NCBI GenBank assembly: GCA_937934115.1
Contig: CALHAH010000011.1
Location: 15,948 to 79,947, forward strand
Length of the DNA stretch: 64,000 bases
Origin: an uncultured Thermoanaerobaculum sp.
GTDB taxonomy: Bacteria; Acidobacteriota; Thermoanaerobaculia; Thermoanaerobaculales; Thermoanaerobaculaceae
Direction of reading: 5' to 3'
The translations under genes and the position numbers were made by a program. The notes under the pieces were generated by a model. That model had not been told where the DNA came from and did not search any database. It worked only from the letters and a program-made list of their open reading frames with translations. Positions 7,269 through 57,118 of the stretch are shown here, piece after piece (positions within the stretch are counted from its first letter, which is position 1; each line of letters starts with the position of its first letter).

Positions 7269-7769
7269 ATGGTGGCCGTGCTTGTGCTCCTGGCAGCCAC
7301 GGCAGTACCGGAGCTGGAGGTGAACCTCACACCGGCGCCGGGGAGGCTGTTGGTGCAAATTACTGTGCAAAAAGCCATCCCCCAGGAGTGGGTGGAAGGG
7401 CTAGCGGGCGGGGCGCCGGTGGCGGTGACCTACCGCATGAAGATCTTTCGCAACCGCCGCTTCCTTTGGGACCAGAGACTTGCCAGCCACGAGCTAGTGG
7501 TGCGGGCGCAAAAGGACCCGGTGAGCGCAGTGATCTCGCTGCAGGCGGAACTGGACGGCGAGGTGCTGGCTTCTTCCCAAACCTCCAAGCTTGAGCAAGC
7601 GCTGCAGTGGGTTTCTCACCCACCTACGGTGGAGCTTCCCATTCCCCTGCACCACGAGCCCCTGTGGCTTTTGGTGCGCGCTGAGTTCCTTACCCGGTAC
7701 AAGCTTTTGGTCATCCCGGTGACGGAGGGTACGGAGTGGGTGACGCGCGCAGTACCGGAGGCGCCGTGA
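7269..7769 (+). CDS. DUF4390-like exported protein (family that precedes ntrY in other bacteria, from memory)
   Basis: 166 aa with a hydrophobic N-terminus. Its stop overlaps the GTG start of the downstream NtrY-like kinase (GTGA). Confidence 0.55.
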   Translation: MVAVLVLLAATAVPELEVNLTPAPGRLLVQITVQKAIPQEWVEGLAGGAPVAVTYRMKIFRNRRFLWDQRLASHELVVRAQKDPVSAVISLQAELDGEVLASSQTSKLEQALQWVSHPPTVELPIPLHHEPLWLLVRAEFLTRYKLLVIPVTEGTEWVTRAVPEAP

Positions 7770-9871: not shown

Positions 9872-11223
9872 GAAGGGCTTCCGTGCTGGTGGTGGATGAC
9901 GAGCCAGGCATTCGCGAGCTGGTGAGCCAAGTCCTCACCGACGAGGGTTTTTCCGTTACCACCGTGGCTTCTGGCGAAGAGGCGCTGGCAGCAGTTTCTC
10001 GAGAGGTTTTCGATTTGATGCTGCTGGACATCAAGCTCCCGGGCATGGATGGTTTGGAAGTGCTCCGTCAGCTTAAGGCCGGGGGCAAGAGGCTGCCGGT
10101 GGTGATGATTTCCGGTCACGCCACCGTGGAGCAAGCGGCACAGGCGGTAAGGGAAGGGGCTGCGGACTTTCTGGAAAAACCCCTGGGGCTGGAGCGGGTA
10201 CTGGTTACCGTTACCAACGTTTTGGAGCGCGCACGTTTGGCGGAGCGGCTACAGGAGGAGGAAGAGGACGTTGAGCTTACGGGCGTTTCTCCTGCCATCG
10301 TTGAGCTACGCCGGCACATCCTTCTGGCGGCGCCCACCGACTCGCGGGTTCTCATTACCGGTCCTAACGGGTCGGGAAAGGAAGTGGTGGCTCGCCTTTT
10401 GCACCGCCATTCCCGGAGAGCCGCAGGGCCGTTTGTGGCCCTTAACTGCGCGGCTATCCCCGCGGAGCTTATCGAGTCTGAGCTTTTTGGCCACACCAAG
10501 GGAGCTTTTACGGGGGCGGTGGAGGCCAAAAGGGGAAAGTTTGAGTTGGCGGACGGTGGCACCTTGTTTTTGGACGAGGTGGGTGACATGAGCCTGCTTA
10601 CCCAAGCCAAGGTCCTGCGCGTGCTGCAGGAGTCGCGCTTTACCCGCCTGGGTGGCGCCACGGAGATCAAGGTGGACGTGCGCGTCATTGCGGCCACGAA
10701 CAAAGACCTGGAAGCTGAAATTGCTGCGGGTCGCTTCCGGCAGGACCTTTACTTCCGCTTGAACGTCATCCCCATTCGGGTGCCACCCTTGGCGGAAAGG
10801 CGGGAGGATATCCCGCTTTTGGTGGAAACGTTCATGACCAAGTTGGGCAAGCGCATGGGGATTAAGCCCAAAAAGGTAACGCCGGAGGCCGTAGAAGCGC
10901 TTTTGGCCTACCCCTGGCCAGGGAACGTGCGGGAGCTCCGCAACTTGGTGGAACGGCTGCTGATCATGGTCCCCGGGGAAGAGGTGACCCCAGCGGACTT
11001 GCCCATGAGGCTTGCGGAAGGGAAAGTATTTTGGCCCAGTCGCCCCTTGCCTTTGAAGCAGGCGAGGGAGGCCTTTGAGCGTGAGTACATTGCCCAGGTG
11101 CTTAAGGCCTGTGAGCAAAATATGTCGCAGGCGGCGCGGATTTTGGGCTTGGAACGCTCTCACTTGTACCGAAAGGTCAAAGCCCTGGGACTTAAGGTTG
11201 ACGGCGCCGCCGGAGAAAGCTAG
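9868..11223 (+). CDS. ntrX: sigma-54-dependent response regulator (NtrX/NtrC family)
   Basis: REC (VLVVDDEP, LLDIKLPG), AAA+ (GPNGSGKE, the GAFTGA motif in GHTKGAFTGA, FLDEV) and a C-terminal Fis-type HTH (QAARILGLERSHLYRKVK). GTGA overlap with ntrY. Confidence 0.9.
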   Translation: MRRASVLVVDDEPGIRELVSQVLTDEGFSVTTVASGEEALAAVSREVFDLMLLDIKLPGMDGLEVLRQLKAGGKRLPVVMISGHATVEQAAQAVREGAADFLEKPLGLERVLVTVTNVLERARLAERLQEEEEDVELTGVSPAIVELRRHILLAAPTDSRVLITGPNGSGKEVVARLLHRHSRRAAGPFVALNCAAIPAELIESELFGHTKGAFTGAVEAKRGKFELADGGTLFLDEVGDMSLLTQAKVLRVLQESRFTRLGGATEIKVDVRVIAATNKDLEAEIAAGRFRQDLYFRLNVIPIRVPPLAERREDIPLLVETFMTKLGKRMGIKPKKVTPEAVEALLAYPWPGNVRELRNLVERLLIMVPGEEVTPADLPMRLAEGKVFWPSRPLPLKQAREAFEREYIAQVLKACEQNMSQAARILGLERSHLYRKVKALGLKVDGAAGES

Positions 11224-11232
11224 CATCAAGCG

Positions 11233-13203
11233 ATGTCCTACCCAGGCTCTCCCGATACGGACCCAAAGGTGCAACAGCGGATCCTGGCGGCTTTCCGCGA
11301 AGCCGTGCGACTTTACCAAGACGGCCACCGCGATGAGTGCCAAACGGTGCTGCACTCTATCCTGGAGGTGGACCCTGCCTTTCGCCCGGCGCAGCGGCTG
11401 GAAACCGCCATCATCCAAGGTTTACCTGTGGATTTGGCGTCGCTCCTTGGCGACCTGGCGGGGGAAACCGGAAGCCAAGTAGGGGAGTTACTTGCGCAGG
11501 CGCGTCAGGCCCTGTCGGCAAGGGACCTTTCGCGGGCGGTGGAGTTGGCGCAGGCGGTGCTGCGAGAGCTGCCGGGTCACCAGGAAGCTCGCTCCCTTCT
11601 CCAGCAGGCCCAGGCTGCCCTCAAAGCCGAAGGTGAGGTGGTGACGCAGTTGGCCCGCGCTCGGCAGGCGCTGGAAGCGGGCCTTTTGGAAGAGGCCAAG
11701 GGGTTTTTGGCCTTGGTGCGGGGGGTGGCGCCGGATCACCCGCAGCTGGCGGAGCTGGAGGCAATGCTGGCTTCGCAACAAGCGGAAGAGGCTGCCCTGG
11801 TGGAGTTTGAAACGTTTACCCCCCCTCCCTCCCCACCTACACCCCCCCCATCCCCGGCCGATGGTATGGAACTGGAAGCGCCGTGGGAAAGTGCAGCTCG
11901 CGAAGCCACTTCCGGCTTTGCCTTCGATGCGGTGGGCGAGGGGCCCACGTTCAGCGCTGAGCCGGCGGTGCCGGAAACGCCAGAGGATCGGGTGGCGGCT
12001 TTGCTGGCGGAGGGTCAGGAAGCCTTTAATCGTGGGGACTACTCGCAAGCGGTGGACGTGTGGACCCGCATTTACCTCATTGACCCCCACAACCAAGAGG
12101 CGGAGCGGCGCATCGAGCAGGCCAGAAGGCGACGGGAAGAACTGGACAGGCTAGCGGAAATGAAGTACGCCGAGGCGCTTGAGGCGTTTGAGGGTGGGCG
12201 ACTGGAGGAAGCAAAGGCACTGCTGCAAGAGGTGCTTTCGCTGCAACCCCAGCATGTGGACGCCAACGACCTCATGGTGCGCCTGGAAACGCCCTCGGCT
12301 CCACCTCCGTTGCGGGCGGAACTGCCACCGGTGGAGGAGGACCTCTTCCGCGACGATTTCGTGCCACAGGAAATCGTGTCGGGGGAAGGTGCAGCGGTGG
12401 CCGAAGCCCCTCTCGAGGAAAGGCCGCCTGTGCGGCCGCCACGTCCCGCCGCCAAGACTGTGCGCGTCGCTTTGCCCCTACCGGTGATGGTGGGTGTGGG
12501 TGTGGCGGTTTTGGTTTTGGTGGTTTTGGGTCTGGTTCTAGGGGGGCGGGTGTTTCAATCCGGGCCGTCGGTAAAGGACGCCCTGCAAGAAGCGGAGCGC
12601 TTAGCGCAACAGGGGCAGGTGCAGGACGCCATTAAGCTTTTGCAGACCTTGAACCTGGAGGGGCCAGAGGCCAATCAAGTGCAGCAGCGGATCCTGGAGT
12701 ATCAAAAGAAGCTCAAGGTGCAGGCACCGCCTCCCCCGGCCGTGGACGTAACCCCTGCTAAGGAGGCTTTGGCTGAGGGGAGGCACCTTAAGGCAGCCCT
12801 GCTCTTGCGCGCTTTTGCGAAGAAGGCCCCGCACGACGATGGGGTGCAGGAGCTTTTGCGCCAAGTGGCTTTTTACGAGCCTGGTCTTCCGGCGGTAGCT
12901 GATGCGTGGGAAAAAGGAAACTGGGAGGTGGCTTCCCGTTCCCTGGCCACCCTGGTGGAGGCCCACCCCCAGGACAGGGAGCTGCAGCAAGCGTGGCAGG
13001 TGGCGCGCTACAACTGGGCTTTGGTGCTGCTGCGGGGCTTTCAAGTGACAGAGGCAGCTAAGGTTTTGGGGGAGCTGGCGAAGGACTCCGATGATCCTGA
13101 GGTGAAGAGGCTTTACGAGCTGGCGCGTGCCTACCTTTCCCGTTCCGTGGATCCGCGTTACAAAATCTTCGTGAACTCCTTACGCGTGCGGGAGCTGCCT
13201 TGA
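11233..13203 (+). CDS. TPR-repeat protein with a central Pro-rich region and one TM helix
   Basis: 656 aa. Repeated TPR-like helical pairs, a PPPSPPTPPPSP linker and the TM segment VALPLPVMVGVGVAVLVLVVLGLVLGG. Confidence 0.7.
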   Translation: MSYPGSPDTDPKVQQRILAAFREAVRLYQDGHRDECQTVLHSILEVDPAFRPAQRLETAIIQGLPVDLASLLGDLAGETGSQVGELLAQARQALSARDLSRAVELAQAVLRELPGHQEARSLLQQAQAALKAEGEVVTQLARARQALEAGLLEEAKGFLALVRGVAPDHPQLAELEAMLASQQAEEAALVEFETFTPPPSPPTPPPSPADGMELEAPWESAAREATSGFAFDAVGEGPTFSAEPAVPETPEDRVAALLAEGQEAFNRGDYSQAVDVWTRIYLIDPHNQEAERRIEQARRRREELDRLAEMKYAEALEAFEGGRLEEAKALLQEVLSLQPQHVDANDLMVRLETPSAPPPLRAELPPVEEDLFRDDFVPQEIVSGEGAAVAEAPLEERPPVRPPRPAAKTVRVALPLPVMVGVGVAVLVLVVLGLVLGGRVFQSGPSVKDALQEAERLAQQGQVQDAIKLLQTLNLEGPEANQVQQRILEYQKKLKVQAPPPPAVDVTPAKEALAEGRHLKAALLLRAFAKKAPHDDGVQELLRQVAFYEPGLPAVADAWEKGNWEVASRSLATLVEAHPQDRELQQAWQVARYNWALVLLRGFQVTEAAKVLGELAKDSDDPEVKRLYELARAYLSRSVDPRYKIFVNSLRVRELP

Positions 13204-20070: not shown

Positions 20071-22827
20071 CTATTGGGGCTTGAACGGTATGGGTTGGGT
20101 GAACCAGGTCTTAACCTTAACCCCATCCTTGGTTGCTGGTTTGTAACGCCAGTTCTTAACGGCCGCTACTGCTGCGGCATCCAAGCCCAGATCGGGTTTG
20201 ACGCCTCGCAGTACCTTAACATCGCGCACCACCCCGTTTTCATCCACCAGCACGCTTAAGATCACGGTCCCTCCCTGCCGCTGCCGCGCTGCCAACGGTG
20301 GGTAGGCGGGTTTGGGCATAACGATCGGCTCAGGCCAGACGTCAGGAAGGTCCACCAAATCGCCTTCTTTCACCGCTGGGGCCGCGGTTTGCGCCACGGC
20401 CGGTGCCGGCGTAGGCGTGGGCCGCGGTGGCGTGGTGGGCTCCGGTACGGGTGTGGGTTCGGGCTCCGCAGGGGCCGGGACCGGGGGCGTGACCAAAGCT
20501 GCGGCTGGGGTTGGCGTAGGCAGCGGGCTAGTGGGTGCGGGGCTAGGAACTACGGCAGGGGCTGGTGCGAGGGTGGGGCGAACGGCAACCGTGGGAACCT
20601 CTGCTGCCGGTGGAGGTGTGGGCTGCGGAGCAGGTGGCGCTGCACGTTCCTCTAATGGGGGGGTAAGTTCCGCTTCCGGCTTGGGGATTTCCACCTGCGC
20701 CACTTGCTGGGGTCCAGGGCTAGATTCGGGCACGGGCGACGGGGCAGGTTTACCCCGGGTGAAGAAGAGGTACGCAGCTGCCGCTGCCAACAACGCCGCC
20801 GGTACGGCCCATACCATGGGGGAAGGCCCACGACGGGCGGGAAGTTCCTGCTCCAGTTCTGGGATAGGGGTGGGTGGCACCGGCACGGGCGCCGGTTTTG
20901 GTTCAGGTGCTGCAGGCCGTTGGGGTTCCGGGGGTTTAGGCGGCGGTGGGCTTACCGGCAGCTTCACCGTGGCGGCGGTCTCGGTCGCTAGTGCGGGCCG
21001 CTCTCGTCCCTGCAAGTCACAGAGGAAGGCGCCAAGGGAAGCGGCACTGGGTGCTGGCTCGAAGGCACGCATGGCAGCTTCCAAATCTTTGGCCATGTCC
21101 GCCGCCGACTGGTACCGCTCTTCCCGTTTTTCCTTCAGGGCTTTCAGAAGGATCTGTTCTACCTCGGAGGGGATGGTGGGGTCCACCTCCCGCGGTGGCA
21201 CCAGCTTGGGGCTTCTCACTTGCTCGAGGATGGAAAGCTCAGAGTCGCCGGAGAAGGCCTTGCGTCCCACGATCATTTCGTAAAGCACGAGGCCCAAAGA
21301 GAAGATGTCGGAGCGATGATCTAAATCTTTCCCCCAAGCCTGCTCTGGTGACATGTATTGCAGCTTGCCCTTGAGGGCTCCGGCGCGGGTATGGGAAGCC
21401 TTGGAGGCCGCTTTGGCGATGCCAAAATCGCAAAGCTTGATTTCTCCTTCATAGGAAATCAGCACGTTTTGCGGGGACACGTCGCGATGCACCAAGGCCA
21501 TGGCTTGGCCCTTGAAGTCGCGTTTGCGGTGCGCGTAATCCAAAGCGTCGGCCAGCCGTGCCCCCACGTAAAGCGAAAGGGGCAGGGGGAAGCGTTCACC
21601 TTTGGCTTGGAGCTTGTTAAGGATAGAGCGCAGGTCGAGGCCGTCAATGTACTCCATGGCGATGTAGTACGAGCGCTCGATCTTGCCCAGGTCATAAATG
21701 TGGATGATGTTGGGGTGCTGGAGCTGGGCGGCGAGCTTGGCCTCGTCAATGAACATGGTTACGAACTCGTCGTTATCGGTGAGATGGGGAAGGATGCGCT
21801 TAATGGCTACGATCTTTTGAAAGCCCTCCAACCCCTTCATGCGGGCCTTGTAAACCTCCGCCATGCCGCCGGTGGCGATGTGCTCGATGAGCTCGTATTG
21901 GCCAAAGGCGGTGCCGGTGGCGGCAGCAGGCTGCGCAGCAGCTGGTTTAGGTGGCTCGGGACGTGCCGCTTTCGGCTCGGCCGGTGCCGGCGGCGTAGGT
22001 TTTGTTGGTGGCTGCGGCTTGGGCTTTACGGGAACTTCCAACCCGGAGAGGGTTTGCGAGAGCAGCTCGTCCACCCGCTTGGCGCCGGTGTCCTCAGCGG
22101 GTTTTGGCCTTTTTTCTTCGACCTTGAGCACATCGGCAATGGTGGCTTCCAAGACCCGCTCCACGTCTTCCACCGCCCCCTTGGGAGCGGGTACTTGGCG
22201 GGGCGGGCTTGGGGGCTTTGCCGGTGCCGTGACAGCCGGCTGCGGCGGAACGGGTGTGGGAGGCTCCGGTTTTCTCGTGGGAGCCTTGGGTTCCACCCGA
22301 ATGCGCTGTGTGTCGGCGGGGCTTGGCGCTTCCTCTTCCTCGAGGAGGTCAGCGAAGAGCTCCTGGGAGGTCACCACACCTTTTTCACCGCCCTGCTGTT
22401 TTAGGGCCTCGAGGATTTCCACCTTGGTTTTTTCGGAAACGCTGGCGGCCCGTGCGCCGCTTTCCAGCCAGTGCTGCACGCAGTCCCTAAGCTGTTGGTC
22501 AGAAAAAGGCTTGGGGAGGATATCCTGAGCCCCAAGACGCTGGGCGTCACCGCGGGTGTCGCTGCCGTTATAGCCACTCATCAAGATGACAAAGGGTGTG
22601 CTGCGCAGGCCGGCGCGGGCTCGCAGTTGCGTAATGGCATCTTCCACCTTCACCCGTGGCAGTACGGAGGTGAGCAACACCAGCGAGGGCTCCACCTTGC
22701 TGCAGTGGGCAATAGCCGCGTCAAGGTCGGTGGCGGTGAGGAACTCCACGTTCAGAGGGGCCAGCGCAGCCGCATAACGGGCGGCGTTGCGGGGCTCGTA
22801 GTCAACCAGAAGGACTGTCGGTTTCAT
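20071..22827 (-). CDS. pseudo-receiver / Ser-Thr protein kinase / TM / TonB C-terminal domain fusion protein
   Basis: N-terminal CheY-like fold with LVLLTSVLP (Thr where the acceptor Asp should be) and conserved ILMSG and LPKPF. Kinase motifs [29 protein letters not shown] helix [19 protein letters not shown]. Three Pro-rich linkers. C-terminal TonB_C ([26 protein letters not shown]...NWRYKPA). Confidence 0.9.
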
Positions 22828-48355: not shown

Positions 48356-48895
48356 ATGCGAGGGTTGCGGCTCGTCCCCGGTTTGTTGCTTTTTGGAGCT
48401 TGCGGTTGGGCTCAGGCCGTGTACTTGGGTGCAGGCGCCGGCGCGGTTTGGGAACGGCGAGCACCCGTGGCGCCTTTCAAAGAGTGGTTTCACGCGGACC
48501 GCCCAGCAACTAGCTTTTTCGTGGCGCTGCCGCTGGACGAGGGAACGCTCTTTCGCCTGGAGAAGGTGGATCTTCCCCATGATGTGCGGTGGCAGAGCTT
48601 GAACTGGAAGGCCAGACTTTCCGGTTGGACTGCCGGGGTGGACTACTTTTTGCCCGGGGTTTGGGGCCAGGCACTGGTTTCTGCCGGGGTAGGAACCTAC
48701 CGGTTGGATTTGGCCGCACGGGTGCCACCGAAGGGCGTGGAGGACACGCGGTTCGGTTGGTACCTCAAGGTGGGAGAGTGGTTCTCCCTGACAAAGAGGT
48801 TGCAGTTTGCGGCGGAGGTGGCCTACCACCGTACCAACCATGCTGGCCAGCCGCAGGTGCTCGCTGCTTCTGGGGCCTTGGTTTTCAAGCTGTAA
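48356..48895 (+). CDS. putative small outer-membrane beta-barrel protein
   Basis: Signal peptide ending AQA, alternating hydrophobic beta-like segments and a C-terminal ...ALVFKL. GGAGGG upstream. Confidence 0.5.
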   Translation: MRGLRLVPGLLLFGACGWAQAVYLGAGAGAVWERRAPVAPFKEWFHADRPATSFFVALPLDEGTLFRLEKVDLPHDVRWQSLNWKARLSGWTAGVDYFLPGVWGQALVSAGVGTYRLDLAARVPPKGVEDTRFGWYLKVGEWFSLTKRLQFAAEVAYHRTNHAGQPQVLAASGALVFKL

Positions 48896-48898
48896 ACC

Positions 48899-49291
48899 AT
48901 GCCGCACGTGATCCTTTCTGGGAAAGCGGACCTTGCGAAGGCATGGCAGGAGTTTCCGCAAGGCCCTTTCCGTTTAGGGAACGCCGTGGCGCGCGTGGAG
49001 GGCAGGTTCTTGAGCTCCTCCCGACGAGAGTTGCTTTTGGAGGCGGTGGTGGTGGAGTTTGGACGCCCCCTGCACCCGGTGATTTTGGTTTCCCATCGCC
49101 AGGAAGGGACGGCTGTGCACCTTTGGGATGTGGTCCGCGTGGAGCGCACGGAAGCCGTTAAAGCCTTTGTCGCGCTGGTGGCGCGGGAGCTTGTCCCCTT
49201 TGGTGCGGGCCAGGTGCGTACCACCAATCTCAAACCCGAGGTGCTCTCCGGGATCTCGGCGGCAGGGGCGGTGGGCGAAGGTCGTGAGTAG
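48899..49291 (+). CDS. hypothetical protein (130 aa)
   Basis: Starts 3 nt after the preceding stop. No recognisable motif. Confidence 0.45.
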   Translation: MPHVILSGKADLAKAWQEFPQGPFRLGNAVARVEGRFLSSSRRELLLEAVVVEFGRPLHPVILVSHRQEGTAVHLWDVVRVERTEAVKAFVALVARELVPFGAGQVRTTNLKPEVLSGISAAGAVGEGRE

Positions 49292-49302
49292 CGGTTGCAA
49301 GG

Positions 49303-49809
49303 TTAGTTTTCCTCCAAAGCTTTTTGCATTTGTTCGCTGCGCTCCACCTGCACATTTTTAAGCTGGTCCTGAATCCCATGGGTGACCGAACCGGGGCTTT
49401 CCCCTGCCAGCACGGAACGGACAATGGCCAGCTCGGATCGTGCCTTTTGTCTTTGCGGGTGATTCGGCTCAGGGCCTGCCTGGGCAAGGGCTACACAAGC
49501 GGCACGCAAAGCCACGGCCACGCGGTACTCGGGACTCCCCGGCCGGCTGCCCGCAGCCCACCCTGCAGCTTTTTGAGCAATGACCTTCAACTCCTGCGGC
49601 GCGGGTTGGGGTTCCAGGACCAAAGCTGCCAGGCGGCTGTAAAACCGTTGCGCTTCCCACCACTCCAAGCTGGCGGGTGGAGCCGCGCTTTGCGGTTCGG
49701 TTTCCCAGGTTCTAACCAGCTGCACGTCGTCACTGGCCTTTCGGGTAAAAAGCCAAAGTCCCACGGCCAAAGCCAAAACCAAAGCTAAAAGCGACAGTGC
49801 CCGTAGCAT
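49303..49809 (-). CDS. hypothetical membrane-anchored helical protein (168 aa)
   Basis: The start at ATG 49809 gives the TM anchor MLRALSLLALVLALAVGLWLF. The track ORF is extended to 50163 across the neighbouring gene. Confidence 0.5.
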   Translation of the reverse strand: MLRALSLLALVLALAVGLWLFTRKASDDVQLVRTWETEPQSAAPPASLEWWEAQRFYSRLAALVLEPQPAPQELKVIAQKAAGWAAGSRPGSPEYRVAVALRAACVALAQAGPEPNHPQRQKARSELAIVRSVLAGESPGSVTHGIQDQLKNVQVERSEQMQKALEEN

Positions 49810-49898
49810 GCGGTCCTCCGTGTATAGCCTACCTCCATGGGCCGTCCTCTGGGGAGGACATAAGCTGCACGCCGTGAAGGCAGCGGCAAGAAAAGAAC

Positions 49899-49914
49899 TG
49901 GCACGAGGTGTGCA
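49899..49914 (+). promoter_or_regulatory. sigma-54 (-24/-12) promoter candidate
   Basis: TGGCACGAGGTGTGCA fits the consensus TGGCACG-N4-TTGCW. GG (49900-01) and GC (49912-13) have the exact 12-nt offset. It is intergenic, 26 nt upstream of ATG 49940, with GAGGAGG in between. Confidence 0.5.
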
Positions 49915-49939
49915 TCGGCTTGCATCGAGGAGGTGCCCG

Positions 49940-50818
49940 ATGAAGCGATTGATGGCTTTGATGTTGCTCTTAGGTAGCACGGTCCAAGGGCGGGAGTTGG
50001 CCTCAATGTACGTGGTGCCGGCGGCAGCCAATACCCCTGGGAAAAACGGCACCGATTGGCACACCGATCTCACCTTGGTGAACCCCCATAGCTTTTCTTT
50101 GCCCATCGTTTTGCAGTTCCTGCCCACGGGACGGGACAATCGAGCCGGGGTACCCACCGTCACCTTTGACCTTTACCCTTACGAAAGCTTGAACCTTTGG
50201 GATGTTTTGGGTCCTAATGGGTTTGCCGCTCGTGGTTCTACGGGGGCCCTTTTGGTGGCCGCCGATACGGACAAGGTTTCCTGTCCCTCCAATTCGGCGC
50301 GGTGCCACTTTGTGGTGTTTTCTCGAACCTACACCGTCGGCCCCCTTCCTGGGGAGTTCGGCCAAGCTTTGCCGGGCTTTCCCGTAGGGTGGGGCTTGGA
50401 TAGGTCGGTCCTCGCGTACCTACCACAGCTTTCCAACGACGTGGATTTCCGCACAAACCTGGGAGTGGCGAGCGTAACCAACGACTTCGTGCAGGTGGGC
50501 TACGACGTGCAAGCCGCAGATGGGCGGATCTTGGCACGGGAAAGCACGTGGATTGCCCCGTACGGTCATGCGCAGTGGGCCCTTACCACCGCTGTCACCG
50601 GCGGCAGCGTGGTTTTTTACATCAAGTCCGGTCCGCAAGATGCCATGCTTTTCCCTTACGCCTCGGTGGTCCATCAGCGCACCGGCGATCCCGTGTACGT
50701 GGAAGCGCACATGACGGTGGTGGGGGTCTCGGCCCAGGGGCTTGCCGTCAGGTCTTTAGCAACCAGGCCTGAGCTTCCCCCGCGATTGGAGGTCCCCAGC
50801 TTCCGTTTGCCCCGGTAA
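49940..50818 (+). CDS. secreted hypothetical protein (292 aa)
   Basis: AGGAGG plus ATG 49940. Signal peptide MKRLMALMLLLGSTVQG. Beta-rich composition. No family recognised. Confidence 0.6.
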   Translation: MKRLMALMLLLGSTVQGRELASMYVVPAAANTPGKNGTDWHTDLTLVNPHSFSLPIVLQFLPTGRDNRAGVPTVTFDLYPYESLNLWDVLGPNGFAARGSTGALLVAADTDKVSCPSNSARCHFVVFSRTYTVGPLPGEFGQALPGFPVGWGLDRSVLAYLPQLSNDVDFRTNLGVASVTNDFVQVGYDVQAADGRILARESTWIAPYGHAQWALTTAVTGGSVVFYIKSGPQDAMLFPYASVVHQRTGDPVYVEAHMTVVGVSAQGLAVRSLATRPELPPRLEVPSFRLPR

Positions 50819-50856: not shown

Positions 50857-51978
50857 ATGCTCGCGTCTTCGCGGGTTTTGGTGGTGGAGGACGACGTGGC
50901 CCTGGCCGCAGCGGAAGTGGAGCTTCTGCGGGAGGGGCTGCCCGGGGCTCAGGTTACCGCCGTTCACGATGGCTTGCGGGCTTGGGAGGTGCTGGTAGCG
51001 GACGGTGCCGAGGTGGTGCTTTCCGATGTGGCGCTCCCTGGAATTGATGCTCTTGAGCTTTTGCGGCGTATCCGCGGGGATCATAACCTGGCGACCACGG
51101 CGGTGATCCTGGTGACGGGCGTTATCGCGCCAGAACAACTCTTTTCGCTTTTGGAAAACGGTGCCGATGATTGCCTGGTAAAACCCATCCGCGGCGAGGA
51201 ATTGGTGGCACGTGTGCGGGCAGCGCTGACGCGGGTGGGCCGGCAGCGGCAGTTGGCCGCAAGGGCCCGCGAGCTGGAAGAAAAGTACGCCCGCGCCAGC
51301 GAGTTTTTGTCTTGGGTGTCCCACGAGATCCGCACCCCCCTTTCCGGCCTTATGTCGGCAGCCCACGTACTCAAGCGCTATGGAAGGCAAAGGCCAGAAG
51401 AGGTGGAACGTTTTGCCGAGGTGATTTACCGGGAAGGGCAAAGGCTTACCCGTCTTATCAACAACCTTTTGGACCTCGCCAAAATCGAGGCGGGCGAGGT
51501 GGAATGGCACGTGCAAGAGGTTCCCCTCTGCGAGCTTTTGCTGCACGTGCAGGAGGTTTTCCGCGCCCTCTGCGCTGATCGCTCGCTGCGCTTGCAGCTG
51601 GTGCCTTGTCCTGGGGCCTTTTTGCGGGTAGACGCCGACAAGCTTTCACAGGTGCTTACCAACTTGCTTTCCAACGCCATCAAGCATTCTCCTGAAGGCG
51701 GTATCGTGAGGCTCGCCTGTACTCGGTCCGAACGGTTCGTGCACATTGCCGTGGAAGACCAAGGTCCGGGGGTTCCCCCTGGGATGGAGGAGGTGATTTT
51801 CCAGCGCTTCCGTCAACTGGATCTCACCGACGAAAAGAGCGGCACCGGTTTGGGGCTAGCCATCTCACGGGAGATCGTGACGCGCTTGGGAGGGCGCATT
51901 TGGGTGGAGCGTTCCGCTTTGGGTGGTGCGCGGTTCGTCATTGAGCTGCCCTGTGTGGGCGATGCGGGGTCTTCCTAA
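50857..51978 (+). CDS. hybrid response regulator receiver-histidine kinase
   Basis: REC (VLVVEDD, VVLSDVALPG, LVKP). H-box SHEIRTPLSGL, N-box LLSNAIKHS, G1 DQGPGV, G2 GTGLGLAI. Confidence 0.9.
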   Translation: MLASSRVLVVEDDVALAAAEVELLREGLPGAQVTAVHDGLRAWEVLVADGAEVVLSDVALPGIDALELLRRIRGDHNLATTAVILVTGVIAPEQLFSLLENGADDCLVKPIRGEELVARVRAALTRVGRQRQLAARARELEEKYARASEFLSWVSHEIRTPLSGLMSAAHVLKRYGRQRPEEVERFAEVIYREGQRLTRLINNLLDLAKIEAGEVEWHVQEVPLCELLLHVQEVFRALCADRSLRLQLVPCPGAFLRVDADKLSQVLTNLLSNAIKHSPEGGIVRLACTRSERFVHIAVEDQGPGVPPGMEEVIFQRFRQLDLTDEKSGTGLGLAISREIVTRLGGRIWVERSALGGARFVIELPCVGDAGSS

Positions 51979-51979
51979 G

Positions 51980-54142
51980 ATGGTTCAGTTCGATAACCAG
52001 TACCGCCAAGTCAAACTTAAGATCGTGTACTACGGGCCTGCCCTGGGTGGGAAAACCACGTGCTTACAGTACATCCACCGGGTCACCGATCCGCAGCGCC
52101 GCACCCGCCTGTACACCTTGAACACCGCATCCGACCGCACGTTGTTTTTTGACCTCTTGGGGTTAGATTTAGGCCGGATTCGCGGTTACCGCTTAACCGT
52201 TCAGCTGTTCACGGTGCCCGGCCAAGTGCAGTACAACACCACGCGGCGGGCAGTGCTTTCCGGGGCTGACGGTGTGGTTTTCGTGGCCGATTCCCAGGCG
52301 GGTCAGGAAAAGGCCAACCTGGAGTCCCTGCAAAACCTTCAAGAAAACCTGCGAGCCAACGGCTTGGATCCCGAAACCATCCCGCTGGTTTTTCAGTACA
52401 ACAAGCGGGATTTGCCTAAGATCTTGTCGCGGGCAGACCTTGACCGCTTGCTCAACCCCAAGGGGTACCCGGTTTTCGAAACCGTGGCCACCACGGGACA
52501 AGGTGTGCTTGAGGCCTTTGCGGCCATTTGTGAGGCTACGGTGCTGTCGGTGGCTGATCGCTTGGGCATTACCGCTCAGGCGGATGCGCTCACGCGCTTG
52601 GTGGCCAACGTGCGTGCCGCCATGGCGCCTTTGATCCCAAAGAAACCCCCGGAAGTGGAAGCGCCGGTGGTGATTCGTACAGGCGGCGAAGGACAGCTGG
52701 GGCCGGAAGAGCTGGCGGCCGAGGCTGTGCGGGCTAACGCCGCCATGGCCGATCTCTCCGCACGGTTGGACCAGCTCTCCAAACAGCTTTCCCGACGGGT
52801 GGAGGAGTTACGGGCCCTCTTGGTGTTTTCTCAGGTGCTTAGCCAAGCGCGGGAGCCCGATGAGGTCACTACCGCTTTTTTCGAGCGGTTTTTGGTGGAC
52901 ATGAGGGTTACCGCCGGCACGTTGATCTTGGAAAACCCCAAGGGAGAGCTCGTGGAGGTTCTGCGCCGGGGCTTAGCCGCGGAGCCTTTGATGCGGCAAA
53001 GCCTGCAAGGAGAGGTGCCGGCGCGAGCGATTCTCCAGGGCCGGCAAGCGTTTCGCTTGGATGTAAGCGAGCTGGCACCGGGTCAAAGCCGGGAGCCTTG
53101 GATCGAAGAGGTCCGGGGCTTGGGGTTTGAGCACTTTTTGGCGGTGCCGCTGGTGGTGCAGGATCGGGCCTGGGGATTGGTAACCGCCTATGGAGAAGCG
53201 ACTCGCGGAGCTTTCCAAGACGAGGATTTAGAGCTGGCCGCCATCATGGGAGCGGTGGGGGCCGTGGCTATTGCCAACGCTCGCGCTTGGCATTCCCTGG
53301 AGCAAGTGAACCGCAATTTGGAAAGCTTGGTGGCGGCCCGCACCGGCGAGCTCCAGCAAGCGCTGACCAGGGCCGAGGCGCTGGCCAAAGAGCTTTCAGC
53401 CAAGAACCAAGAGCTGGAGGCCGCCTACCGCCGCCTGGCGGAACTGGATCGGCTCAAGGGCGAGTTGCTGCGACGGGTAGCCCACGAGTTCAACACCCCA
53501 GTGACGGCCATTCAAACCGCGGCGCGCATCCTCACCCGTTGGGATCAAATTCCCAAGGAAAAGGTGAACAACTTTGTGGGGATCGTGGTGGAAGAAGCCT
53601 CACGGCTTGGCGATCTCATTGCCTCGGCTTTGCAGGCGGCGGCGCTGAGCTTGCCCCAGGAAGTGGAGGAAAAGACCGCGGTGGCGGTGGCGGATCTCCT
53701 GCGGCAAGCGTTGGCGCCCGTCAAAGGAGAGGTGGCCGATCGGCAAATCAAGATGGCGGTGAAGGTGGCTTCTGGCTTGGAGAAGGTGGTGTGTTTTCCG
53801 CAGGCTTTGACGGCGGCGTTAACCGCACTTCTGAGAAACGCGGTGGAGTTCAACCAGCCCCAGGGGAGTGTCACGGTAACCGTCTTGCCAGTGCGCAAAG
53901 CAGGGCAAAGCTTTGTGGAGTTTCGGGTAGAGGACACCGGGGTGGGTATTTCCCCGGAGGACCTCCCCCAAGTTACCGAGCCCTTTTTCCAGGGAGGGAA
54001 CCTCCTCACCAGCAAACCCAAGGGCCTGGGGTTGGGGTTGGCGGTAGCCAAAAGGGTGGCGGAGCTGCACGGGGGGACGTTGGAGATCGTTTCGCAACCG
54101 GGGCAAGGAACCACGGTGAGCTTGCGGATAGCGGTGGGTTGA
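51980..54142 (+). CDS. MglA-like small GTPase domain fused to GAF-histidine kinase (720 aa)
   Basis: N-terminus: KIVYYGPALGGKTT (P-loop), SDRTLFFD (switch I), TVPGQ (switch II), VFVADSQ and QYNKRD (G4). A helical linker, a GAF-like module, H-box VAHEFNTPVTAI, N-box LLRNAVEFN, G1 DTGVGI and G2 GLGLGLAV follow. The ATG lies 1 nt after the upstream stop. Confidence 0.9.
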   Translation: MVQFDNQYRQVKLKIVYYGPALGGKTTCLQYIHRVTDPQRRTRLYTLNTASDRTLFFDLLGLDLGRIRGYRLTVQLFTVPGQVQYNTTRRAVLSGADGVVFVADSQAGQEKANLESLQNLQENLRANGLDPETIPLVFQYNKRDLPKILSRADLDRLLNPKGYPVFETVATTGQGVLEAFAAICEATVLSVADRLGITAQADALTRLVANVRAAMAPLIPKKPPEVEAPVVIRTGGEGQLGPEELAAEAVRANAAMADLSARLDQLSKQLSRRVEELRALLVFSQVLSQAREPDEVTTAFFERFLVDMRVTAGTLILENPKGELVEVLRRGLAAEPLMRQSLQGEVPARAILQGRQAFRLDVSELAPGQSREPWIEEVRGLGFEHFLAVPLVVQDRAWGLVTAYGEATRGAFQDEDLELAAIMGAVGAVAIANARAWHSLEQVNRNLESLVAARTGELQQALTRAEALAKELSAKNQELEAAYRRLAELDRLKGELLRRVAHEFNTPVTAIQTAARILTRWDQIPKEKVNNFVGIVVEEASRLGDLIASALQAAALSLPQEVEEKTAVAVADLLRQALAPVKGEVADRQIKMAVKVASGLEKVVCFPQALTAALTALLRNAVEFNQPQGSVTVTVLPVRKAGQSFVEFRVEDTGVGISPEDLPQVTEPFFQGGNLLTSKPKGLGLGLAVAKRVAELHGGTLEIVSQPGQGTTVSLRIAVG

Positions 54143-54143
54143 C

Positions 54144-54521
54144 GTGCCGGACGTGCTGGTGGTGGATGACGAGCCTGCCATTCGGGAGACCCTCTCCTTC
54201 ATCCTGGAGATGGAGGGTTTTACCGTGGATGTGGCGGTGGACGGCGAACAGGCGCTGGCCAAGGTGCGGGAAACGCACCCGCGGGTTGTGCTTTTGGACG
54301 TGATGATGCCGAAAAAGGACGGTTACCGAGTGTGCGAGGCAATCAAGGATGACCCGCAAACCGCCGCCACCAAGGTGGTTATTCTCACGGCCATGGGTCA
54401 AGCTGCGGATCGTGCCCGCGCCGTTGCGCTGGGGGCGGATGCTTACATTTCCAAACCCTTTGATGAGGACAGCTTGATTGTCCTACTTCGCAAGCTTATG
54501 GCGGAGGGACCCAGTGCTTGA
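54144..54521 (+). CDS. single-domain response regulator (CheY-like)
   Basis: VLVVDDEP, VVLLDVMMP, ILTA, ISKPF. The GTG lies 1 nt after the upstream stop. Confidence 0.92.
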   Translation: MPDVLVVDDEPAIRETLSFILEMEGFTVDVAVDGEQALAKVRETHPRVVLLDVMMPKKDGYRVCEAIKDDPQTAATKVVILTAMGQAADRARAVALGADAYISKPFDEDSLIVLLRKLMAEGPSA

Positions 54522-55398
54522 ACTGGGGGTGCTCACCGCCACCCCCAGCTTGCCCATATACCAGGAGCTGGTGCAGCAGGGATCCCAGCTGGGGGTGTTG
54601 GTGCACCTGTGGGATGCCACCCGCATGGTGGCACAGGTGCCGGGAGGGGTTGCCCTCGAGGGTCAACCCTTGGCCGTGGAGCGGGTACCTGTTTTCCTCC
54701 CGCGGGTGGGGAATTGGCGTCCGGAGTCCATTTTGGCTTTGGTCACGGCGCTGGAGCGGCAAGGGTGCGTCCCCTGCAACCGCCCGGAGGCCATTCGCCT
54801 GGGCCGTGATCACCTGCGCACCGTGGAAAGGTTGAGCCTTGCGGGCATCCCTCACCCGCAAACTGTGGCCGGAAGCGACCCCCTGGTCTTGGCGGAGGCG
54901 GCCCGGGCGTTGGGTTTTCCGGTGGTGGTGAAGGTCCGCCGCTCCCGTCAAGGTGTGGGCGTGATCCGCTGTGGCTCGTTGCCCGAGCTAGAAGCGGTGC
55001 TGGATGCCCTCTTCCGCTTGGGCGAGGAGGTGGTGGTGCAGCGCTTTTGTCCCCCTGGCGGTGAGAGCTTCCGGGCGTTGGTGCTCCAGGGATCGGTGCT
55101 CGGGGTAACCCGCCACCGGGCGCAGGAGGGCGAGTTTCGCACCAACGCCGCCCGCGGCGGGGTGGTGGAGCCTTGGCCCGCGGACGCAAAGCTTCATTCT
55201 CTCGCTGTCGCCGCAGCCACAGCTTGCGGTCTTGGCTTTTGCGGGGTGGACCTTTGGCCCGACGGGGAGCAACTGGTGGTGGGCGAGGTCAACCCGACCC
55301 CTGGATGGAAACACTTTGCCCGGGCTACGGGTCTACCGGTGGCTCGCCTGCTGGTGGAGGCGTTAATAGCCCAGGCGCGAGGGCAGGGGGACCGGTGA
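54514..55398 (+). CDS. rimK: RimK-family ATP-grasp alpha-L-glutamate ligase
   Basis: FPVVVKVRRSRQGVGV and the GEFRTNAARGG signature, then GVDLWPDGEQLVVGEVNPTPG. GTG 54514 overlaps the response regulator stop by 8 nt. Confidence 0.82.
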   Translation: MLELGVLTATPSLPIYQELVQQGSQLGVLVHLWDATRMVAQVPGGVALEGQPLAVERVPVFLPRVGNWRPESILALVTALERQGCVPCNRPEAIRLGRDHLRTVERLSLAGIPHPQTVAGSDPLVLAEAARALGFPVVVKVRRSRQGVGVIRCGSLPELEAVLDALFRLGEEVVVQRFCPPGGESFRALVLQGSVLGVTRHRAQEGEFRTNAARGGVVEPWPADAKLHSLAVAAATACGLGFCGVDLWPDGEQLVVGEVNPTPGWKHFARATGLPVARLLVEALIAQARGQGDR

Positions 55399-56564
55399 AC
55401 CCGTTTGCTTTAGTGGGGGAAGTGCGGCTCAAGCCCGGCAAGGAAGAGCCCTGCCGCCGTCGGCACCCTTGGGTTTACCGCGGGGCCTTGGCCGCAACGC
55501 TTCCCGAAAAAAAAGGGCCGGTAGCTGTATTTACCGCCAATGGGGAGCTTTTGGGTGTGGCCTTGCCCGGGGCTTCCACTGGTTCCTTGGCGTTGCGCAT
55601 GGTTGCCTTTGGCGAGGAACCTTGGAACGCTTCGGTTTTACGGCGGCGTTTGGTCAGGGCCTGGAAGCTGCGGGAAGTGGTGCGGGAGCACTCTGAGGCT
55701 TTTCGTTTCCTCCACGCCGAAGGGGATGGTGTTCCTGGTCTGGTGGCGGATGTTTACGGCCGCTTTTTGGTTTTTGAGCTTTACGAGCCAGCGTGGGAAA
55801 GCTATTTGCCGCTCTTGGTGGAGGAAGCCGCAAGGGTTTCGGGAGCAAAAACGGTGCTTTGCCGAAGGTCCTACGAGATAGGTGTGGAGGTACTCAAAGG
55901 TGCGGCACCGGCGGAGCCGGTGCCGGTACGGGAGTATGGGTGGCTTCTTGTGGCTGACCTTCTTGGTGGGCAAAAGACCGGGCTTTTTTTGGATCAGCGG
56001 GAAAACCGCCTGTTGCTTTCTCGCCGTGCTCGTGCTGCCAGGGTTTGCAACCTGTTTGCCTATACGGGGGGTTTTGCCGTGGCGGCGCGGGTGGGTGGCG
56101 CTCGCCACGTGGTCAACGTGGAAAGCTCTAAGAAAGCCTTGGCGCTTGCGCAACGTACGTACGAGGCCAACGGGCTTTCTTGGAACGAGGGCGAATTTGT
56201 GCAAGGTGATGCCTTTCTTGTAGCCAGGCAGCTGGCCTTGCGGGGGGAAAAGTTCGACTGGGTGGTGGTAGATCCCCCCGCTTTTGTGAAGGCCGCTGAA
56301 AAACAAGCCCGCGGTCTTTCCGGGTACCGCCATATCAACTTGCAAGCCCTGAAATTAGTGCGCGAGGGGGGAATGCTGCTCAGCTGCTCGTGCTCCGCGC
56401 GGGTGACCGTGGAGCAGCTGGAGGGGGCGCTGCTTGCTGCGGCTTTGGATGCTGGTCGGGAGGTGAGGGTCCTGGAACGACGAGGGGCGGGTCCGGACCA
56501 CCCCGTGTCTCTGTTTTGCCCTGAGGCTCGCCACCTTAAGGTCCTCTGGTGCGCGGTTTTTTAG
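55395..56564 (+). CDS. rlmI: class I SAM-dependent rRNA (cytosine-C5) methyltransferase RlmI-like
   Basis: PUA-like N-terminus (RLKPGKEEPCRRRHPWVYRGAL), QKTGLFLDQREN, NLFAYTGGF, VVVDPPAF. GTGA overlap with rimK. Confidence 0.85.
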   Translation: MNPFALVGEVRLKPGKEEPCRRRHPWVYRGALAATLPEKKGPVAVFTANGELLGVALPGASTGSLALRMVAFGEEPWNASVLRRRLVRAWKLREVVREHSEAFRFLHAEGDGVPGLVADVYGRFLVFELYEPAWESYLPLLVEEAARVSGAKTVLCRRSYEIGVEVLKGAAPAEPVPVREYGWLLVADLLGGQKTGLFLDQRENRLLLSRRARAARVCNLFAYTGGFAVAARVGGARHVVNVESSKKALALAQRTYEANGLSWNEGEFVQGDAFLVARQLALRGEKFDWVVVDPPAFVKAAEKQARGLSGYRHINLQALKLVREGGMLLSCSCSARVTVEQLEGALLAAALDAGREVRVLERRGAGPDHPVSLFCPEARHLKVLWCAVF

Positions 56565-56570
56565 CGGAGC

Positions 56571-56599
56571 TTGACACCTTGGGGGGGCTCGTTTAGATT
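56571..56599 (+). promoter_or_regulatory. sigma-70 promoter for tRNA-Gly
   Basis: TTGACA (56571-76), 17 nt spacer, TAGATT (56594-99), about 27 nt upstream of the tRNA 5' end. Confidence 0.55.
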
Positions 56600-56625
56600 T
56601 TTTCGCGGTGGGAAGCCACCGGCGA

Positions 56626-56701
56626 GCGGGCATAACTCAGCTGGTAGAGTGTCAGCTTCCCAAGCTGAAAGTCGCGGGTTCGAATCCCGTTGCCCGCTCC
56701 A
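56626..56701 (+). tRNA. tRNA-Gly (anticodon CCC), CCA encoded
   Basis: Manual cloverleaf. Acceptor GCGGGCA/TGCCCGC, D arm AACTCAGCTGGTAGAGT, anticodon stem TCAGC/GCTGA with loop TTCCCAA, T arm GCGGG-TTCGAAT-CCCGT, discriminator T, then CCA. Confidence 0.95.
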
Positions 56702-56716
56702 TTTTTGGAGGTTCCT

Positions 56717-57118
56717 GTGGCTGGCCTGGTTCGTGAGCATCCCCATGAAGCCCGTTTTGTAGCAGGTTCCACCGTAATTGCCAAGGATTCGCGCCTGAAG
56801 GGTGAGTTAGCAGGCACCGCTGGGGTGCGTATCGAAGGGCAGGTGGAGGGCAACGTAACCGTGGACGGGCCGGTGGAAGTGGCGGAAGGTGCCAAGGTGC
56901 AAGGGGAAATCAAGGGGCGAACCGTAAAAGTGGCCGGGGAGGTGGTGGGTAACGTCCACGCCTTGCAGCTTGTAGAGCTTTTGGCCTCGGGTTCGGTCAA
57001 GGGCGATCTTTTCACCCCCTCCTTGCACGTGGTTGAGGGTGCTCACCTGGAGGGGCAAGTCCACATGGAAGCCCGACCACAGGCTTCGGCTTCGCAACCG
57101 CCACGAGCCAAGTCTTGA
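56717..57118 (+). CDS. bactofilin (polymer-forming cytoskeletal protein, DUF583)
   Basis: Beta-helical repeat pattern (VIAKDSRLKGELAGTAGVRIEGQVEGNVTVDGPVEVAEGAKVQGEIKGRTVKVAGEVVGNV...). GGAGG lies 5 nt before GTG 56717. The earlier track start would overlap the tRNA. Confidence 0.88.
   Translation: MAGLVREHPHEARFVAGSTVIAKDSRLKGELAGTAGVRIEGQVEGNVTVDGPVEVAEGAKVQGEIKGRTVKVAGEVVGNVHALQLVELLASGSVKGDLFTPSLHVVEGAHLEGQVHMEARPQASASQPPRAKS

Follow-up and report, generated by a model that had tools for sequence, protein, structure and literature searches.

A GTPase-fused histidine kinase cassette beside rimK- and rlmI-like genes in Thermoanaerobaculum, and the possible origin of the locus from two evolutionary modules

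The window analysed here is a stretch of 64,000 nucleotides (nt) from an uncultured Thermoanaerobaculum sp. of the Acidobacteriota (GenBank assembly GCA_937934115.1, contig CALHAH010000011.1, positions 15,948 to 79,947 of the forward strand), and coordinates of the window are counted from its first letter. It contains five consecutive, co-directional open reading frames (ORFs), which encode a histidine kinase with an N-terminal receiver (gene 1, REC-HK), a histidine kinase fused to an MglA-type GTPase and a GAF domain (gene 2, MglA-GAF-HK), a stand-alone receiver (gene 3), a RimK-family ATP-grasp ligase (gene 4) and an RlmI-like 23S rRNA methyltransferase (gene 5); their positions are collected in Table 1. 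Comparison with the corresponding loci of relatives suggests that these genes represent two evolutionary modules, which have been compacted in this genus into one translationally coupled operon, a reading to which we give a probability of a little over one half (about 0.55).

The ORF list and a direct reading of the junctions agree with the preliminary description of this DNA, according to which the five genes are joined by gaps of 1 nt or by overlaps. In detail, the TAA of gene 1 (51976-51978) is followed after 1 nt by ATG 51980 and the TGA of gene 2 (54140-54142) likewise by GTG 54144, while genes 3 and 4 overlap by 8 nt (GTG 54514 against TGA 54519-54521) and genes 4 and 5 by 4 nt (GTGA at 55395-55398). 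The domain order given there was recovered with Pfam, as was the absence of a DNA-binding output from the signalling proteins: in the Pfam scan the five proteins yielded neither a DNA-binding nor an Hpt domain, and their neighbours no Hpt domain either. Co-transcription of the five genes in this genome is a likely prediction.

Table 1. The five genes, the gene in front of them and the right border of the locus (positions in the window; aa, amino acids; SAM, S-adenosylmethionine; m5C, 5-methylcytosine)
Feature	Position	Strand	Basis
Secreted-type protein, function unassigned, ~292 aa	49940..50818	+	ORF; N-terminal signal-peptide-like sequence MKRLMALMLLLGSTVQG
Gene 1: REC-HisKA-HATPase_c kinase, 373 aa, cytoplasmic, no sensor domain	50857..51978	+	Pfam
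Gene 2: MglA-type GTPase (aa 1-195), coiled-coil linker, GAF, HisKA, HATPase_c, 720 aa	51980..54142	+	Pfam, PDB
Gene 3: stand-alone receiver (REC only), 125 aa, without output domain	54144..54521	+	Pfam, 106 bits
Gene 4: RimK-family ATP-grasp ligase, 294 aa	54514..55398	+	Pfam RimK (104 bits), TIGR00768, PDB, AlphaFold2 model
Gene 5: RlmI-like PUA + SAM-dependent RNA m5C methyltransferase, 389 aa	55395..56564	+	Pfam, NCBIfam, PDB
Right border: promoter-like site TTGACA-17-TAGATT (56571-56599); tRNA-Gly(CCC) (56626-56701)	56571..56701	+	

Related loci were taken from contexts fetched directly and from a scan with the ligase alignment, with one genome per GTDB species (52 loci, nearly all from Thermoanaerobaculia-type metagenome-assembled genomes); all loci, about 60 altogether and numbered with an L below, were mapped with the window proteins as probes. 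GTPase-kinase homologues and ligase homologues were repeatedly found together on the same contigs, and one gene order recurs: proline dehydrogenase (ProDH) and ComF on the minus strand, three small ORFs, a secreted protein, REC-HK, MglA-GAF-HK, optionally a GAF-PP2C gene, the receiver, RimK and RlmI. This order was present in 33 locus entries including the window (about 31 distinct contigs, a few having been fetched twice), and since it recurs in more than 30 species-level relatives it is more than chance. The preliminary description had proposed a check of whether the MglA-kinase is kept next to rimK and rlmI in related genomes or whether their juxtaposition is fortuitous; the adjacency is kept in many relatives and is not a single case. 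The synteny extends far to the left through ProDH and ComF, runs within the family without a break from the kinase cassette into rimK, and stops in most lineages just 3' of rlmI. Because the functionally unrelated flank (ProDH/ComF) is equally syntenic, conserved adjacency is weak evidence for a common function and may reflect a gene order that was simply inherited.

The genes for REC-HK and the MglA-kinase overlap by 14-17 nt in 33 of 34 loci; the window has a gap of 1 nt there, and the public database call for gene 2 (726 aa) implies a start at ATG 51962 and with it an overlap of 17 nt. The gaps from the kinase to the PP2C gene and on to the receiver range from about -4 to 17 nt, and rimK and rlmI are separated by a median of 2 nt (at most 30 nt in 34 of 38 cases). 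The junction between receiver and rimK is the loosest of the cluster, with a median gap of 99 nt and a maximum of 1248 nt; it measures at most 30 nt in 9 of 34 loci and more than 100 nt in 17 of 34, and is tight only in the genus of the window, the 8-nt overlap being limited to the window and its close relative L009. Both the gap statistics and this limited occurrence of the overlap point to two sub-operons, one for signalling and one consisting of rimK and rlmI, that were fused in the genus of the window. The tight coupling of signalling genes to rimK that had been described before is thus a property of the genus of the window, whereas in relatives rimK-rlmI is a separate tight pair.

Several points speak against this interpretation or weaken it. 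The gap lengths on which the two-module reading rests were taken from the coordinates of domain hits and are approximate. The longer receiver-rimK spacers of the relatives revealed no signal common to them, and scans for promoters and terminators in the operon and in the longer spacers of L020, L014 and L002 yielded nothing above shuffled expectation and were uninformative; an internal promoter may exist within the unit of the window. In addition, the receiver of gene 1 is less constant than the rest of the cassette, with its phospho-acceptor Asp kept in 27 of 34 relatives and lost in 7.

Among the long receiver-rimK or rimK-rlmI insertions inspected (L013, L017, L024, L029, L036 and L052) no convincing coding gene was found. 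The receiver-rimK spacer of L017 (7820-8926) is taken up by GC-rich tandem repeat arrays, whose units measure 140 and 37 nt (e.g. GCGCGCCCGGCGGTCGCGCCCCACATTTGAACTGCAG), and the non-coding receiver-rimK or rimK-rlmI insertions of L013 (9860-10650), L024 (1080-2040) and L029 (8220-9000 and 9860-10600) have short repeat-like stretches in common. These repeats may be elements similar to repetitive extragenic palindromes or to miniature inverted-repeat transposable elements; no CRISPR-like spacers were seen in those of L017, L013, L024 and L029. Apparent frameshifts or fragments were also encountered, namely a split MglA-kinase gene in L052 (4306-6470), an rlmI in three pieces in L013 (10657-11824), a split rimK in L056 (8995-9845) and mere kinase remnants in L061 (6126-7109), and reflect either decay or assembly errors.

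The strongest result of our analysis concerns the signalling genes. All 33 loci with both the REC-HK gene and the gene for the stand-alone receiver have the H-box histidine (RVAHExNTP) in their GTPase-fused kinase; in each of the ten syntenic loci with neither receiver gene (L004, L027, L053, L042-L044, L046, L047, L050 and L062) S, A, T, G or L stands in its place. In a neighbour-joining tree built from the ligase, the group without receivers (L004, L027 and L053) branches from within lineages that have them, and therefore both receiver genes and the histidine appear to have been lost jointly and secondarily. By this strict co-variation the three signalling proteins behave as one evolutionary unit and, by inference, as one functional unit of phosphotransfer. 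GTPase motifs and ATP-binding boxes are kept with and without the histidine, and their retention in the His-less proteins implies an additional role of the GTPase-GAF-(pseudo)kinase that is independent of phosphotransfer.

In the signalling proteins of the window the residues expected of a phosphotransfer system are in place. Both kinases of the window have complete H, N, G1 and G2 boxes. In gene 1 the receiver residues D57, T87 and K109 are intact and the H-box reads SHEIRTP; the H-box His, the N-box Asn and the G1 Asp of its orthologues are invariant in 34 of 34 relatives. The stand-alone receiver has its phospho-acceptor Asp, Thr and Lys in all 34 relatives, and the acidic pair in 33-34 of them. 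The earlier term "three-protein phosphorelay" is nevertheless an overstatement, because a classical His-Asp-His-Asp phosphorelay has a second histidine step and no Hpt or Spo0B-like domain was found with Pfam. Judged from these residues and domains, a two-component cassette with two kinases and two receivers is the more fitting description.

In 12 locus entries (L001, L012, L013, L015, L017, L021-L023, L028, L029, L035 and L052) a gene for a GAF-SpoIIE (PP2C) phosphatase lies between the MglA-kinase and the receiver, e.g. at 12184-13701 in L001. It is spaced from its neighbours by about -4 to 17 nt, with the exception of L052, where about 950 nt precede it and the kinase gene is split. The insertion suggests that there may be cross-talk with a Ser/Thr phosphatase within the cassette.

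The best-supported new feature is the MglA-fused kinase itself. The N-terminal ~190 aa of gene 2 align end to end with MglA from Myxococcus xanthus (PDB 6hjh; E 4.7e-53, 183 bits), and the motifs GPALGGKTT (the P-loop), DRTLFFD (with the MglA-specific intrinsic arginine), TVPGQ and NKRD are kept in 18 of 18 aligned homologues; the intrinsic Gln is kept in gene 2, too. By these motifs the region is a true MglA domain, though the protein is not a canonical MglA, which would have a single domain of ~195 aa, as here the GTPase is fused to GAF-HisKA-HATPase in a chain of 720 aa. No Roadblock (MglB-type) domain turned up among the scanned ORFs of the window, which is annotated in part and was not searched systematically for an MglB-like GTPase-activating protein or nucleotide exchange factor.

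The family of proteins with an N-terminal MglA domain seems to be large, for an exhaustive HMMER search with the N-terminal 307 aa as query gave 1,892 cluster representatives at E<1e-30. The top 150 (P0241-P0389) are all longer than 200 aa and have C-terminal parts of 100-600 aa that mostly do not match the linker, GAF domain or kinase core of the window protein; about 20 have kinase cores and some a GAF domain only, and P0381 is an MglA-FHA-GGDEF-Ser/Thr kinase. Distant MglA-(GAF)-HisKA-HATPase fusions with the histidine present and a GTPase ~45% identical in sequence (P0257 and P0258; L005-L008, gene at 10001-12200) are flanked by an aminotransferase/dnaA-dnaN-gyrB block on one side and by pyrF and bacillithiol (bshC/bshB/bshA-like) genes on the other. 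Since neither rimK nor rlmI nor REC genes were found near P0257 and P0258, the GTPase-kinase fusion as such is not tied to rimK; L005-L008 likewise have no receiver gene close to the fusion. The survey of prokaryotic Ras-like GTPases of 2014 took in single-domain proteins only (PMC4316618). In the literature we searched, no description was found of MglA-kinase fusions, of RimK linked to two-component genes or response regulators, or of an MglA in Thermoanaerobaculum; the fusion is accordingly undescribed within that literature, while its individual domains are conventional.

The ligase passes the RimK-family subfamily model TIGR00768 narrowly (149.6, cut-off 143.4), but fails both the S6-ligase equivalog NF007764 (85.1 bits, cut-off 331) and the LysX equivalog LysX_arch (99.8, cut-off 275.6). 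Its best sequence match in the PDB is RimK from Pseudomonas (7qyr, 104 bits), followed by Escherichia coli RimK (91.5 bits) and by LysX/ArgX chains (48-67 bits). An AlphaFold2 model of high confidence (predicted local distance difference test, pLDDT, 92) superimposes on P. aeruginosa RimK 7qyr with a template modelling (TM) score of 0.89 at 30% identity and on Thermus LysX with a TM score of 0.86, and the Mg/ATP-ligand columns K140, D246, E258 and N260 are invariant in the ligase alignment. The modelled fold places the protein in the RimK/LysX group of ligases acting on protein C-termini and does not fix the substrate. By sequence the ligase belongs to the RimK family, and we do not assign S6 specificity to it. 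An identity as LysX/ArgX was rejected, as neither LysW nor aminoadipate-pathway genes lie nearby and RimK is the nearer match by sequence, the fold alone being unable to separate the two; glutathione synthetase, cyanophycin synthetase and D-Ala-D-Ala ligase were rejected with scores of 37 bits or less. The placement of the ATP-grasp protein in the RimK clade and not among the glutathione or cyanophycin synthetases, which had been named beforehand, like a merely fortuitous adjacency, as an outcome that would decide the matter, was thus confirmed by profile scores and PDB matches, and neither of the two adverse outcomes was encountered. A possible substrate was looked for as well: no match to S6 (rpsF) was obtained in the window or the fetched loci with an approximate E. 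coli S6 sequence as query, and no conserved neighbour of the locus has a conserved acidic C-terminus of the LysW or S6 kind.

Gene 5 consists of a PUA_3 (PF17785) and a Methyltrans_SAM (PF10672) domain and has its best PDB match in E. coli RlmI/YccW (3c0k, 225 bits). The best NCBIfam models are 23S C1962 methyltransferases, whose cut-offs are not reached (256 against 575 and 222 against 712), and RSP_2647 (220) and the C2499 methyltransferase (199) follow closely, so that all equivalog cut-offs are missed. The names RimK and RlmI, as given in the preliminary description, therefore hold at the level of the family, but for neither protein at the level of the equivalog. We consider the rlmI-like gene to be probably a housekeeping passenger of rimK.

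A different arrangement is found in a sister clade, the other main branch of the ligase tree, whose ligases are 45-52% identical to the window protein. Here rimK is divergently paired with a gene for a 458-aa PATAN/PatA_N (PF14332) protein without a REC domain (L042-L044, L046-L051, L055, L056, L062 and L063; in L061 no PATAN gene was called and only kinase fragments are present), most loci have a ferritin gene on the opposite strand 3' of rimK, and rlmI is absent from the locus. The upstream MglA-kinase lacks the histidine or is lost or fragmented (L048, L049, L055, L061 and L063). The PATAN gene, of which there is none in the window, fills the slot between kinase and rimK in which the window has its stand-alone receiver. 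In three lineages, on the other hand, both receivers and the kinase histidine are lost and the GTPase-pseudokinase is kept with rimK and rlmI, adjoining this pair at a gap of ~44 nt. rimK thus persists without the phosphotransfer proteins, since there are loci that keep it although they lack the receiver, the kinase histidine or even the entire kinase. In both clades it is also the only gene that stays beside members of the MglA system, be it the PATAN gene, the MglA-(pseudo)kinase or both. Genomic association with MglB-type modules is known for PATAN proteins (PMC4316618), and in Synechocystis the pilus motor PilB1 is bound by PATAN domains (bioRxiv 10.1101/2021.06.11.447907). The ligase may therefore have a functional tie to an MglA/PATAN module.

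From the architecture of the proteins a working model for the two modules can be drawn. In the first, the MglA-type GTPase switch together with the GAF domain would gate the autophosphorylation of the HisKA/HATPase kinase in the same polypeptide; the second kinase carries an N-terminal receiver, and the stand-alone receiver would be the terminal phospho-acceptor and, because it has no output domain, would act by protein-protein contact. The second module comprises the rimK-family ligase and the rlmI-like 23S rRNA m5C methyltransferase, translationally coupled to each other throughout the family, and both modules are most likely co-expressed in this genome.

What the first module acts on is a separate question, and the ribosome as signalling output, suggested by the preliminary description, is an open hypothesis resting on thin evidence which we hold to be unlikely. 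In that case the GTPase-kinase pathway would signal to the ribosome, with the phosphorylated stand-alone receiver or the GTPase-kinase itself controlling the glutamylation of S6 by RimK, and with the methylation of 23S rRNA by RlmI as a second, co-regulated modification of the ribosome. The overlap of signalling and rimK genes in the window, signalling proteins without DNA-binding output, a ligase that is nearest to true RimK enzymes in sequence and fold, and its tight and conserved coupling to an rRNA methyltransferase, which amounts to a ribosomal theme, would all fit, as would the GTPase-pseudokinase that still adjoins rimK-rlmI after the loss of the receivers; regulated RimK also has a precedent in the RimABK system of Pseudomonas (PMC7343187, PMC10092738). 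Yet the cut-off for S6 ligases is missed by far (85 against 331), the ligase is no more than ~30% identical to RimK and resembles LysX/ArgX in fold about as closely, the junction between receiver and rimK is loose in most relatives, and RimK is kept without receiver, kinase histidine or kinase, rlmI being missing altogether from the locus of the sister clade. If, on the contrary, the cassette is a control module of the MglA/PATAN type for polarity or type IV pili, its output would run through adaptors (the stand-alone receiver in the window, the PATAN protein in the sister clade) and rimK and rlmI would be unrelated neighbours by inherited synteny. The end-to-end alignment with M. xanthus MglA, with intrinsic Arg and Gln kept, argues for this, as do the position of the PATAN gene between kinase and rimK, the binding of PATAN to PilB1 and its association with MglB cited above, the high background conservation of gene order in the whole block from ProDH/ComF onwards, and the bactofilin gene just 3' of the locus in the genus of the window. 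We nonetheless think it quite improbable, as neither pilus nor motility genes nor MglB were seen in the annotated part of the window, the synteny breaks right after rlmI and never, within the family, between kinase cassette and rimK, and the persistence of rimK beside the GTPase-pseudokinase after receiver loss is left without an account.

A further reading makes the ligase a dedicated effector of the MglA/PATAN system, which would glutamylate a non-ribosomal protein or make poly-Glu and would be controlled by the GTPase-kinase scaffold independently of phosphotransfer. RimK alone stays linked to MglA-system genes in both clades, and the GTPase and ATP-binding motifs are still there in kinases without the histidine; but no neighbour with a conserved acidic C-terminus offers itself as substrate, L048, L049, L055 and L063 keep RimK and PATAN without a kinase while L061 has kinase fragments and no PATAN gene called, and the linkage could be pure synteny, for which reasons this appears very unlikely to us. 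A combined mechanism, in which the MglA domain gates the kinase of the same chain and the pathway controls the RimK-type ligase through the receiver, or by direct scaffolding in the His-less lineages, is likewise doubtful and we would give it rather low odds. The reading of two modules, compacted in this genus into one operon, is the one we favour.

Parts of the locus resemble known systems. The gene 2 domain has the P-loop, the intrinsic arginine, TVPGQ and NKRD in common with the Group 1 MglA proteins of Myxococcus xanthus and Thermus (with MglB, RomR and FrzZ), and like here, Myxococcus MglA works alongside receiver-domain proteins; those MglA proteins, however, are single-domain switches, whereas the domain described here is covalently fused to GAF-HisKA-HATPase and has no MglB in sight nearby. 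The conservon of Streptomyces (CvnA kinase, CvnB roadblock, CvnC and the MglA-like GTPase CvnD) also brings a kinase-type protein and an MglA-family GTPase together in one conserved operon (PMC4316618; PMC12236503), but as separate polypeptides, with a membrane-bound, HAMP-containing CvnA and no response regulator, while the window cassette is cytoplasmic, fused and extended by a second kinase and a receiver. In Pseudomonas RimABK a RimK-family ligase is co-transcribed with regulatory and signalling proteins, a likeness that for the window is predicted from the gene arrangement; the ligases are ~30% identical, no link to cyclic di-GMP is evident in the window, and with Pfam no homologue of RimA (EAL) or RimB (a retropepsin-like protease) was found in the operon or its flanks. 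E. coli RlmI (YccW), the 23S rRNA m5C1962 methyltransferase, has the same PUA + SAM-methyltransferase architecture as gene 5, although gene 5 stays under every equivalog cut-off; we know of no link of E. coli rlmI to rimK or to signalling genes. Finally, the 458-aa protein of the sister clade resembles PATAN (PatA_N, DUF4388) adaptors such as the PatA-type PixE and PixG in its PATAN domain, a gene for which the window lacks.

The gene for the secreted-type protein lies 38 nt 5' of gene 1 on the same strand and has an orthologue at this position in more than 40 loci, directly 5' of the signalling genes in almost all relatives, and may be the first gene of the unit. The protein has no match in Pfam, NCBIfam or the PDB by sequence searches, and a single-sequence AlphaFold model was unusable (pLDDT 33). 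Further 5' come three small conserved ORFs and then the ComF-like gene and proline dehydrogenase. The small ORFs (48356-50163 in the window) occupy the same positions in ~40 loci, with a synteny equal to that of the operon; they encode a 179-aa protein that has a signal peptide and, at its C-terminus, a motif resembling those of beta-barrels, one of 130 aa whose C-terminus is usually ...TTNIPDLL and, on the minus strand, one of ~170 aa whose N-terminal part has a hydrophobic segment and whose C-terminal tail is charged and rich in Glu/Gln. On the other side, the strong promoter-like site and the tRNA-Gly(CCC) come immediately after the stop codon of rlmI, and genes for a bactofilin and for RNase Y come next. 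The listed bactofilin ORF (56690-57118) shares a few nucleotides with the 3' end of the tRNA, and its real start is probably further downstream; only the closest relatives have parts of this tRNA/bactofilin/RNase Y flank, L009 both bactofilin and RNase Y and L010 bactofilin. Other signalling genes noticed in the window are that of a 918-aa protein (20071-22827, minus strand), whose architecture of a receiver at the N-terminus, a Ser/Thr protein kinase domain and TonB_C at the C-terminus is unusual, and a second, conventional two-component pair (7736-11223, plus strand), in which a HAMP-HisKA-HATPase kinase gene and that of an NtrC-type sigma-54 activator overlap by 4 nt.

Small Ras-like GTPases and two-component systems usually count as two different signalling languages of bacteria, and where a link is known, as in Frz/RomR/MglA or the Streptomyces conservon, it is made by separate proteins. 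The fusion described here, together with its natural variants, in which the kinase histidine and the two receiver partners are gained or lost together, provides a compact and testable system for the control of a histidine kinase by a GTPase. Should the pathway indeed control the ligase, it would constitute a route from a GTPase via phosphotransfer to post-translational glutamylation, be it of S6 or of another target, that bypasses transcription; and with the ligase as its output it would be a second case of regulated glutamylation of the ribosome or of proteins after Pseudomonas RimABK, operating by a different control logic.

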